In this document: positions 18,001-21,000 of the stretch, one piece after another
How the letters are laid out: every line of letters begins with the position of its first letter
Numbering within the stretch: position 1 is the first letter of the stretch
Source of the DNA: Escherichia coli
GTDB taxonomy: Bacteria > Pseudomonadota > Gammaproteobacteria > Enterobacterales > Enterobacteriaceae
Strand: one strand, 5' to 3'
NCBI RefSeq assembly: GCF_002854065.1
Contig: NZ_CP024154.1
Length of the DNA: 64,000 bases
Program-made: the position numbers

Positions 18001-21000
18001 CCGTACCTGCGCGGTAAAGTCTGGGGTTATTCTCGCCATATTCCCGGAAGGCCAGGTCCACCAGGCTGCTGATGATTTGCCGGGTGTCGCCGGGATTACA
18101 GGGCTGACCGGTGCCGGTATCCACACACAATGCACAGAGGACGGAGACCATGAAGTTCTTTTCCGGTGTGACGGGTTTTCTGGCCCCGTACATCACATCA
18201 AACAGGTTGCGGGTGTGGTCCGGGTCATTACTCAGAATGATCCCCACGGCTTCGTCCTTTCTCTGCTCAGGCAGGCTGTCACGGATAAGCTGTACCAGTC
18301 CCTGTGCACTGAATCCCTTGTCGATATAGGCAATGAAAGGGAGATTCTTCTGGGCTGAGGCTATCTGGATCTCCGACAGTGCGTTGATGAGTACCGATTT
18401 GCCCAGACCGGGTGCGCCGGGTGTCAGCTCCGTGTGCTTGTTCTGTTGTGATGACGCCAGCGCCACCTCCCATGCAGAGCCGTCTTCGGTGTGCATCATC
18501 AGATTTCCCTGTCCCCGCCAGACAGAGCCTGCCCTGTTCAGGGGAAACAGGGAAAGGGCGTGTGAAAGGGGCGGGTAAAGGGGGATCGGGCCGGAGCTGT
18601 GGGAGGCTGCCAGAACCGTGTTCACCCAGGCACGTCTCGGATCACCGAAGGTTGTGGTGGTGCCGCATACCCCCCAGCCTTCCAGCGCAGATTTCAGGAG
18701 AGCCTGGTTACGGGTACAGACTTCCCGGCTGTTTCCCCATGTGGTGGCAACAATGGTCATGATACAGACCGGATCATGCTTGTTGATGTCATTCAGCATC
18801 ATTACCGAGTCATACATGGGCCGGAGAGGAGGAATAAAGCTGCTGTAGGTCAGCAGGGTTTTCTTGACCCCCAGCGCCTTCATGCCGTCGGGCATCAGAT
18901 CCATCCGGATACGCCAGGGGATTGCACGGGGCACATCCCTGACCAGCTGGTTGAATGTCCGCAGATTCTGAGGGGGCAGGGTAATGGCGACCATACCGTG
19001 CCAGAGCTCACCGGCCTGAATCAGGCTGCCGTGTGTTTCAGGCTGTGTGGTGAATAACTGCAGATTCAGCGACGGTGCGTGGAATACAGAGGTATCCCCG
19101 CCCTGTCGCCAGCCGGCAGGACGGGCATCTTCGGGCAGATGAGGCTGCCATACTGCCGGTGTACTGTTGCGCTCCAGTTGGCGGCGGATTTCCCGTCCCA
19201 CTTCATGGATATCCATCAGGCGAATCAGCAGGCCATCAGAATCATGTGTCAGGGCCTGCTCCAGCGTGTCCAGTAAGGCGTCATGCCGTATTTTGAGGGC
19301 GGAAAGTGTCCAGCGCCAGGGATCCTGCGCAAAACGGGCTGGCGGAGCGTGTTCAGCTAGTTTCCTGACACGGGTCTGATGGTCCTTGCGATCGGTCCGG
19401 CTCAGCAGTTCTTCAGAGCTCCAGACGGTCAGCCAGCAGCGCTCCCGGACAAGCCAGGGGGTGAGTGTGGTGACTTTTTCATCCAGGACGTCCTGAAGCA
19501 GGATCCCCGTGCGTGCGATGGATTTTCGCTGGGGTAAGAGCATGGCTTCGATTTCATCCCTTCCACGCTCCGGATCGCGTTCGAAAACAAAACTGATTTT
19601 GTGGCCGGAATTTTTCCAGGCCGTGTTCATTCGCTCAGCCAGTGCTGCAATCAGTGACTCCAGTGTCCCGGGGGCCGTCTGGTCCGGGTTTTCATCCATT
19701 TCTTTCAGGGCACCGCTGATTTCAAAGACGGAAAGGTAATACCCCTGTTTTGTGGTGGCAATGTAGGGGGCTTTCAGCCAGGGGCGGCGTTCGCGGTCCT
19801 GCTGGTCCAGACCGATGACGGTGTGCAGATCACAGTAATCGGGGAAGAATGCGGAAACGGAATACCGTGACAGGGTACTGATACAGTCTTCAATGGCAAA
19901 AATAATGCGGTTGATATTCATGGCAGAGGTGGCTCCGGAAGACAAAATAAATCGCGGGCTGCAACTGTATTCAAATGGGAACGCTATGCGTGTAAGTTGT
20001 GCTGAGTGAGTATTGCTGTCAGGATGTTTTTTGCTGAGAATAGTGTAGTTTCCCCGGCAGGGAAATTTAAAGTCATGATTTGTCCTCCAGGTTATGTGTA
20101 ATGTTTTCCGTTTTTAATATGTTTCTTGGGAAATGAGGAAATAGAGTGAAGGCTGAAAATAAAATATTAAATCTTTTTCATGCGACAACAATGAGCAGAG
20201 GCCTGCAAATAATAAAAGATGGGAAAATAAGAACTGATGCTCCTTCTGTTATATGCTGGTCGTTAGAGACGACACCAGGATGGATTTATTTATCGGATCA
20301 ACTTGATAATGCGGTGCATTGGGGGAATAAAATAGCATGCTTTTCAAAAGATGAATTATTTTTCTATATTTTCAGAGTTCAGGTTCAGGAAGAAAATTGT
20401 TATCCTGATACAGATGATTTGCAATATGTGTCGTGGTTATCTCCTGAGGAGGCAGAAAACACAGACCTGTATACATGTCTTTCTCTTTGCCATTCCTGCC
20501 GAACTGACAAAGAACTGTATACAGGTTGTGAAATATCAGATTATGCAGTCCTTCCTGCAACAACACTGTATACTGACAATTCAGGACATCCTCAATATGA
20601 TATTGTTAATACGCTTAAAAAACATATAGGCAAAGATGAGTATAATCAGTATGAATCACTTCGTCAGCGTATTGAATGGGTTTGTTTATAAGTGATCTTA
20701 TTAAGGTGTACAACAATAGATTTTCTTCTTTTGTTTTGTATAAATACCGGAGGAATATAAAAGAAACGGAGACTGCAGAGACAGAGATGAAGTTGTTTTC
20801 CCCGTTTCCTTAATGAAAATTCAGTCAGGGGGGTGGCCGGATAATTATGCCGCGCACTTAATTCCCTGTTGAACTGAAGTATTCCGGCAATATTCAGCAG
20901 TACGCCGGCCAGCCTGCCGTCATCATCCCGCAGGAAACGACGGAGTAGCCGGTGCTCTTCTTTGGCGGTACTGTCAGCTTTTCCGGCCAGGTGTGCGTGG

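Follow-up and report, generated by a model that had tools for sequence, protein, structure and literature searches.

ORF181, an open reading frame (ORF) of 181 codons on the plus strand of an Escherichia coli plasmid, encodes a small protein with an ADP-ribosyltransferase (ART) fold that belongs to an uncharacterised family without a Pfam model. The gene lies in the transfer (tra) region of an IncK2/Z plasmid (I-complex, MPF_I), within a 64,000-nucleotide stretch of contig NZ_CP024154.1 (assembly GCF_002854065.1), hereafter the window. It is a real, conserved gene under purifying selection, and more than a chance reading frame. In the reading that we favour, with a probability of roughly 0.4, ORF181 would be a mono-ADP-ribosyltransferase of the H-Y-[EDQ] clade that serves as an accessory conflict effector, is expressed from its own promoter and is modulated by two partner genes, orf127 and orf134.

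The structure model of ORF181 (pLDDT 95.3, pTM 0.90) displays the split beta-sheet ART fold of the H-Y-[EDQ] clade, with strands at residues 7-15 (b1), 47-50 (b2), 72-81 (b3), 117-120 (b4), 124-126 (b5) and 130-137 (b6). Its secondary-structure elements run b1-a-b2-a-b3...b4-b5-b6, so that H, Y and E fall on strands 1, 2 and 5; the clade is defined by a histidine (in the motif H-x-[ST]), a tyrosine and a Glu, Asp or Gln on those same strands (PMC7955679). With H12 and Y48 on the first two strands and E123 immediately ahead of strand 5, ORF181 was assigned to the H-Y-[EDQ] arrangement. The positions concerned are the following.

Codons 20179-20187, plus strand: motif I, H12-A13-T14, on strand 7-15, within LFHATT (residues 10-15; family consensus LYHGT).
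Codon 20287-20289, plus strand: motif II, Y48, on strand 47-50, within WIYLS (family consensus VYLT).
Codons 20407-20415, plus strand: D88 and D90, in the family-invariant loop after strand 3.
Codon 20512-20514, plus strand: E123, at the start of strand 5 (it precedes strand 124-126).

Residue conservation was taken from a family alignment of 87 members. Motifs I and II are kept almost throughout, with H12 in 83/87, T14 in 84/87 and Y48 in 85/87 sequences. Position 123 is more variable (D in 52, N and S in 13 each, E in 5 of the 87), and E123 is placed by strand order only. The family also carries a signature of its own, made of a P-D-x-D-E loop after strand 3 (D88 in 87/87 and D90 in 85/87; position 91 is E in 72/87 and D in ORF181) and an S-x-R strand (S117 in 57/87, R119 in 64/87).

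Comparison of the model with known structures returned ART-fold proteins, with listed values of 8.6 for the Rhs toxin TreX, 8.5 for heat-labile enterotoxin A, 7.9 for DarT1 (134 aligned residues) and for PltA, 7.7 for Tpt1, 7.0 for Arr (18% identity), 6.9 for PARP15 and 4.9 for IcmQ; pertussis, diphtheria and RES toxins were also among the neighbours. The initial annotation had noted a possible ART-like motif at the N-terminus and proposed a structural comparison against ART-fold families. Both the fold and the conserved H12/T14 pair bear this suspicion out, with the refinement that the whole protein, and not its N-terminus alone, is the ART domain. The cysteine cluster noticed at the same time, CLSLCHSC, is indeed present (residues 111-118), but it is specific to the plasmid clade and no feature of the family: the cysteines are invariant only in a clade of eight plasmid sequences and are replaced by S or V in the wider family. 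A metal site was considered for this cluster and rejected, given that lack of conservation outside the plasmid clade.

At the level of sequence the protein is hard to place. Against Pfam ORF181 gave no significant match, only NUDIX at E 0.37; NCBIfam, PADLOC and the sequences of the PDB gave none, and PHROG gave a single group of unknown function (E 2e-4). Family profiles searched against PDB sequences yielded a non-significant match to the first strand of Tpt1 (E 0.3) and noise only. Among the 87 relatives, a Pfam scan found PARP (PF00644) in three (best E 8.7e-7), DUF3990 in one and, weakly, ART-PolyVal in one, so that the relationship between ORF181 and PF00644, drawn from profile matches, would be transitive only, through 3/87 relatives at E<=1e-3. 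Foldseek against AFDB50 retrieved a 99%-identical E. coli protein, A0A075MAE3, whose UniProt name is 'DUF4433 domain-containing protein' (the DarT domain), together with uncharacterised proteins of about 175 residues, some of them named DUF3990, PARP or DarT. Public annotation thus already hints at the ART nature of ORF181 through this UniProt label, while the RefSeq entry, WP_001390888.1, reads hypothetical protein. The searchable literature, including queries by accession, for hypothetical genes near IncK traT/traU and for DUF3990, described neither the family nor its partners nor where the gene is placed.

Several lines of evidence establish that ORF181 is a gene. Protein collections contain full-length homologues at 74, 56, 47 and 40-42% identity, and the wider family comprises 101 cluster representatives at E<=1e-3, mostly 165-190 residues long, with full-length matches down to about 25% identity. 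Using pairs whose synonymous sites are unsaturated, the ratio of non-synonymous to synonymous substitution rates (dN/dS) of the ART gene is 0.18 between the window and locus L006 and 0.15 between loci L022 and L024, the latter pair giving 0.18 for TraU; among the IncK2/Z variants themselves, with only 1-2 substitutions, the ratio is uninformative. Since homologues extend over the full length to such low identity and dN/dS is 0.15-0.18, we conclude that ORF181 is a gene. Its product is acidic (isoelectric point, pI, 4.8) and has no hydrophobic segment, pointing to a cytoplasmic protein.

The same data bear on the possibility that the region makes no protein with a function, and that the gap is a promoter or regulatory region for traU in which the ORF is fortuitous or merely an antisense transcript. 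The AT-rich composition and a promoter-like site directed toward traU (minus strand, 20667 to 20639) would suit such a view; full-length conservation, the low dN/dS, a confidently predicted fold with conserved residues of active-site type, and related plasmids in which a 175-bp spacer suffices at this place all speak against it, and we regard it as having a negligible chance of being right. The version of this idea that had been set down as what would refute the initial proposal, a mere traU promoter region with an ORF not conserved in related plasmids, is contradicted by the conservation data.

Between positions 19500 and 21500 the window matches CP056607.1 and NZ_CP141226.1 at 100% identity, and NZ_CP015141.1 (pEC732_3) is essentially identical there as well. 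The minus-strand genes follow the order traT, orf134, orf127, then a break, then traU, a traV-like gene, traW, traX and traY; the features of the locus are listed below.

21458..22276, minus strand: traT, the tra gene that borders the three-gene module on its upstream side.
21044..21403 as annotated, minus strand: orf134 (119 residues in the annotation, orf119), partner gene.
20664..21047, minus strand: orf127, 127 residues, partner gene, basic (pI 10.8).
20146..20691, plus strand: ORF181, 181 residues, ART fold, GTG start.
20664..20691, both strands: 28 nt in which ORF181 and orf127 overlap convergently at their 3' ends.
19922..20145, plus strand: putative leader and promoter region of ORF181, non-coding, also upstream of traU.
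16877..19921, minus strand: traU, 1014 residues, in the position of the type IVB secretion system (T4BSS) ATPase, the flanking tra gene downstream of the break.

The picture first drawn of this locus holds in each of its elements. An interruption of about 720 bp had been described upstream of traU in the otherwise minus-strand operon, and the break without a minus-strand gene measures 742 bp from the ATG at 19921, which is the traU start in the annotation of identical plasmids, or 718 bp from an alternative TTG at 19945. The 181-residue plus-strand ORF reported within it starts with GTG, preceded at 6 nt by a Shine-Dalgarno sequence, GAGGA (20135-20139). Its GC content, said to be far below that of its neighbours, is 0.36 against 0.58 in traU, and in sliding windows GC falls to 0.34-0.38 over 19950-20850. 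The convergent overlap with the tra gene ending at 20664 is the one listed above.

A candidate -10 element, TAATAT (20115-20120), also occurs at L006, the 72%-identical locus, and scans of the locus for promoters and terminators gave nothing beyond shuffled expectation. Within the 3' end of ORF181, the minus-strand site CTGACG-17-TATACT (20639-20667), a match to consensus only, is directed toward traU; as judged from that match, traU could be expressed from it even without transcription arriving from the tra genes upstream. The plus strand also has two hairpins that resemble terminators and carry T-runs, both at the distal end of the three genes (21379-21410 and 21453-21480); the number of such hairpins on this strand equals the shuffled expectation. 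A transcript from ORF181 could run antisense through both partner genes before ending at these hairpins. An Rfam scan of 19500-21800 found no RNA family. Inside ORF181, between 20465 and 20526, two copies of the palindrome CTGTATACAG (Leu-Tyr-Thr codons) form a 21-nt inverted repeat that is 86% complementary; considered as a functional element, this repeat is probably a chance product of the two copies.

Comparison across plasmids shows that the ART gene does not travel alone. The arrangement orf134, orf127 and convergent ART recurs in six lineages (the window, L006, L007, L010/11, L022 and L024), whose identities to the window are as follows.

L006, second E. coli plasmid: TraU 54%, ART 72%.
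L007-9, Salmonella contigs: TraU 75%, ART 54%.
L010/11, metagenomic contigs: TraU 62%, ART 41%.
L022, Enterobacter ludwigii: TraU 47%, ART 42-43%.
L024, Serratia: TraU 47%, ART 42-43%.

In the other traU-bearing lineages the ART gene is again opposite to the tra strand and tail-to-tail with an orf127-like gene, overlapping it by 6-25 nt. Counted over six other MPF_I plasmid lineages, the ART homologues with this opposite-strand placement are 41-74% identical to ORF181, with TraU at 46-75%. The address of the trio varies: the window has it downstream of traT, L022 and L024 have it on the upstream side of a traT-like gene, and in L006 it lies beyond a PLD-nuclease gene, where its three genes are closer to those of the window (72/59/63%) than TraU is (54%). 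In a Rahnella MPF_I plasmid the module comprises only two genes and is located in the pil operon, with pilN on one side and a TcpQ-like gene on the other; it consists of the ART and a 137-residue protein that matches orf134 at E 7e-6, convergent and with a 23-nt overlap. Because the trio recurs while its site relative to traT changes, the conserved unit is the module and not its address, and the partners go with the ART rather than with traT or traU.

The partners themselves are distant paralogues (hhalign probability 83.5%, E 8e-6), with no match for either in Pfam, NCBIfam, PADLOC or PHROG. Besides the very basic orf127 protein, the orf119 product is acidic (pI 4.9), and its model gave no significant fold match and no macro or NADAR match. 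This family of small genes, which spans 20664-21448 in the window, is confined to MPF_I plasmids of Enterobacterales and persists where ORF181 has been lost. No ADP-ribosylhydrolase is annotated anywhere on pEC732_3. At L006 (contig of GCA_024497895.1, 726-1411 and 5270-5806), a PIN/PhdYeFM toxin-antitoxin (TA) pair lies between traU and traW, and a PLD-family (DrmC-like) nuclease gene separates the traT-like gene from the ART module; further accessory genes are therefore embedded in that tra operon.

The low GC of ORF181 had been taken as a mark of acquired cargo. ART genes lie 15-20 GC points below TraU in six traU-bearing lineages, and about 5 points below pilN in Rahnella. Between L022 and L024, the ART has diverged as much as TraU (85% and 86% identity; dS 0.54 and 0.48). 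As GC is low across lineages and divergence resembles that of TraU, low GC is a lasting property of the gene and not the trace of a recent arrival. The description as cargo therefore stands insofar as the gene is accessory, most related plasmids being without it, but not as regards recency: it is an old, partner-linked resident of MPF_I transfer regions.

Such strict linkage, found in all seven plasmid lineages although the location of the module varies, raises the question of an addiction system, in which ORF181 would be a growth-arresting ART toxin neutralised through binding by orf127 and/or orf134, with orphan immunity genes retained after ORF181 loss. Some related plasmids do retain orf127 and orf134 while lacking the ART, no plasmid showed the opposite, ORF181 and orf127 have complementary pI values (4.8 and 10.8), and the fold neighbours include ART toxins of the DarT and RES types. 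Type II TA systems, however, co-transcribe their antitoxin, and here the always adjacent partner genes are convergent with the ART; moreover, the partner model has no fold match and relatives without partners exist. We consider a toxin-immunity pair unlikely.

Among plasmid records, 447 match a 2-kb query from the locus and 73 of them cover it fully and carry ORF181; others have the partner genes alone or just an orf134 remnant. By tblastn the ORF181 protein occurs in 80 plasmids, 73 at >95% identity and one at 72%, the remainder including the Rahnella plasmid (35%) and Bacillus plasmids (23%). It had been proposed to check whether homologous plasmids lack the insert, and most do. Three layouts were distinguished. 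Layout A is that of the window (traT, both partner genes, ORF181, traU). In layout B (IncK2/Z) both small minus-strand genes are kept, and an unrelated 175-bp spacer replaces ORF181 and its 200-bp leader. In layout C (IncI1/B/O) traU and traT are almost adjacent, with the same 175-bp spacer and remnants of orf134. At L004 (NZ_CP054354.1, 2057-2239), a layout C locus, two such short remnants were located, one of 70% identity over 54 residues and one of 12 residues. Since these remnants survive, layout C arose by deletion, the module not having been originally absent.

Layouts B and C predominate among related plasmids, and in a collection of IncK-blaCMY-2 plasmids both the ART-carrying pHBI04 and ART-lacking plasmids were conjugation-positive (PMC11047599); pHBI04 (98,160 bp) is identical to the window here. 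Given this predominance and the reported conjugation of both classes, ORF181 is accessory, dispensable for conjugation and not part of the conjugation machine. In the IncK2/Z group, a sugE-blc-blaCMY-2 unit adjoins a shortened orf134-like gene on the traT side (L003, NZ_MT725450.1, 2478-4246), and plasmids with this unit at the orf134 site are reported to be conjugative (PMC11047599). The tra operon can therefore accommodate insertions at this place.

A role as an accessory of type IVB secretion, either as an IcmQ-like NAD-binding component or as an effector sent through the conjugation channel with orf127 and orf134 as adaptors, is highly improbable on these grounds, the gene being missing from most conjugation-proficient relatives. 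IcmQ ranks only 53rd among the fold neighbours, far below ARTs of toxin type, and ORF181 has no N-terminal helical domain. Its C-terminus is folded and confidently modelled, with W178 kept even in prophage members, unlike a disordered secretion signal, and the partner fold matches no IcmS or IcmW structure.

Outside plasmids, relatives at 25-35% identity are single genes in mobile or defence contexts. In 9/9 prophage contexts checked, the homologue abuts a holin gene: in six lambdoid prophages (L016, L032, L036, L038, L039, L044) it is antisense, between the antiterminator Q and the holin, and in three low-GC prophages (L019, L031, L035) it is directly upstream of the holin on the same strand. 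Two of the lambdoid loci, L039 (5507-5797) and L044 (5507-5749), contain a PHROG 1856 gene of unknown function that is convergent with the ART homologue and shares about 10 nt with its 3' end. This neighbour recalls the plasmid layout, though its protein is unrelated to orf127/orf134 and missing from the other prophages. A 31%-identical homologue (L012, CP075175.1, 4938-6513) lies on the same strand 31 bp after an AbiTii-TIR gene (PADLOC candidate PDC-S35), in an island that also holds AbiJ-like and Lit-peptidase genes, and the two may form a two-gene TIR+ART unit. Another relative occurs in a Bacillus subtilis island with a SIR2_2 gene about 4 kb upstream. ORF181 and two prophage relatives, searched by tblastn against 50,697 phage genomes, gave no match, and scanning species-representative genomes with the plasmid-clade alignment found nothing.

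These neighbourhoods (in prophages the moron site close to the holin, in plasmids the transfer region, and elsewhere defence islands) lead us to favour a role in conflict. The nature of the target may be narrowed as well. ARTs that modify DNA or RNA are generally basic. As this family is acidic overall (median pI 5.3), a protein or small-molecule target is favoured over nucleic acid.

Within a conflict role, ORF181 might ADP-ribosylate and disable a host immune protein, thereby aiding persistence of the plasmid or prophage. The precedent is AcrIF11, a stand-alone small ART with H, Y and acidic residues that is found on phages and plasmids, targets Csy1 and is not toxic to the host (PMC11383003). 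The acidic pI suits a protein target, and the prophage relatives likewise stand alone without a conserved partner. Yet ORF181 is far from the plasmid leading region, and an anti-defence function is, in our judgement, rather unlikely. Detoxification of an antibiotic or metabolite by a small-molecule ART resembling Arr would be another outlet for such an enzyme. Comparison by hhalign of the family profile with Arr-3, whose sequence was confirmed against plasmid annotations, gave a probability of 4% (E 0.01) over strands 1-3 only; the Arr Pfam model matches 0 family members, and positions beside phage lysis genes or inside tra operons are unlike those of resistance cassettes. This makes an Arr-like activity improbable.

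Mechanistically, the conflict effector that we favour would be a small soluble NAD+-dependent mono-ADP-ribosyltransferase, probably active. It would be transcribed from its own promoter, in the direction opposite to the tra operon, and would ADP-ribosylate a protein target, so protecting the host-plasmid pair from incoming phages or rival elements. Orf127 and orf134 may modulate it or confer immunity to it. ORF181 would be made while the tra operon is silent, and convergent transcription would turn it down once the transfer genes fire; the prophage relatives would behave likewise when Q-dependent late transcription fires. The recurrent antisense placement in operons that are silent during dormancy (tra and Q-dependent late) suggests such expression in the dormant state with shut-off on mobilisation. 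Ranking the roles, defence or exclusion is the most likely, anti-defence comes second and toxin-immunity third, and the others receive low weight.

A number of observations weigh against this proposal. The acid of motif III is replaced by N or S in 26/87 relatives, and the roles given to E123 and to D88/D90 are putative. The promoter scan upstream of ORF181 gave no consensus promoter above noise. No PADLOC 2.0 model matches ORF181, its partners or four distant relatives. The prophage and defence-island loci have no orf127/orf134 homologue, so the partner link may be specific to plasmids. Finally, the conflict-locus neighbourhood is only circumstantial for defence, and stand-alone ARTs of mobile genetic elements with an anti-defence role exist, as AcrIF11 illustrates.

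A more far-reaching version can also be formulated. ORF181, orf127 and orf134 would then constitute a three-gene system, not recognised before, that is specific to conjugative plasmids of type IVB (MPF_I); its ART would either target incoming machinery for DNA transfer or of phages, or pass into recipients. Convergent tra transcription would switch it (on in transfer-silent cells, off in active donors), and lambdoid prophages would use the same antisense switch between Q-dependent late transcription and the homologous moron gene. In this full form we find the idea distinctly doubtful.

The question has practical weight, in that IncK and IncI-complex plasmids are major carriers of blaCMY-2 and of extended-spectrum beta-lactamase genes. 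An enzyme retained in the tra operon across deep divergence, and kept by temperate phages beside their genes for lysis, is a candidate for a new role in conflict, be it phage or plasmid exclusion, immune evasion or addiction. Its target, if found, would open a new branch of the ADP-ribosylation toolkit and could account for ways in which plasmid variants that have the gene differ in host range or stability from those that lack it. Its repeated antisense location also offers a testable model in which an accessory function is coupled to the silent or active state of its element.

Set against known systems, ORF181 shares its fold with several of them. For DarT, the model DUF4433 (PF14487) matches neither ORF181 at E<=10 nor the 87 relatives, so the UniProt label on A0A075MAE3 must derive from another profile. 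The partner of DarTG systems, a macrodomain (DarG) or NADAR protein, was found neither beside ORF181 nor in the plasmid annotation. ORF181 further differs from DarT in being acidic, in its family-specific PDxDE loop and in having convergent rather than operonic neighbours, and its pI of 4.8 argues weakly against DarT-like binding of single-stranded DNA or other nucleic acid. With PARP and DUF3990 proteins the family has in common the HGT and YLT motifs, as well as a second aromatic pair, A-x-Y-Y-G-N, as in PARPs, and the putative acid before strand 5 would be a further likeness; ORF181 itself matches neither model, however, and with 181 residues in total has no regulatory or helical PARP subdomain. 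Arr differs in its genomic contexts and gives a non-significant profile comparison, and ORF181 carries a C-terminal helical extension. IcmQ of the Legionella Dot/Icm T4BSS is a weak structural match whose N-terminal membrane-active helical domain is missing in ORF181, and an essential T4BSS role is not seen for a gene that is dispensable and on the opposite strand. AcrIF11, by its description, is similar as a stand-alone small ART of phages and plasmids with H/Y plus acidic residues, and a protein target would be a further likeness; it is not among the listed fold neighbours, and ORF181 sits in a tra region and not in an anti-defence locus. Since no Pfam model matches or, for Arr, profile similarity is lacking, ORF181 fits the H-Y-[EDQ] ART fold and motifs I and II, but not DarT, PARP or Arr as they are defined. 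What is new here is an uncharacterised ART family that bears a signature of its own (PDxDE, SxR), together with a three-gene module specific to plasmids and an antisense position that recurs; the fold is ordinary, and the unexpected features are its deep retention inside transfer operons of the type IVB kind and the parallel that prophage morons offer.

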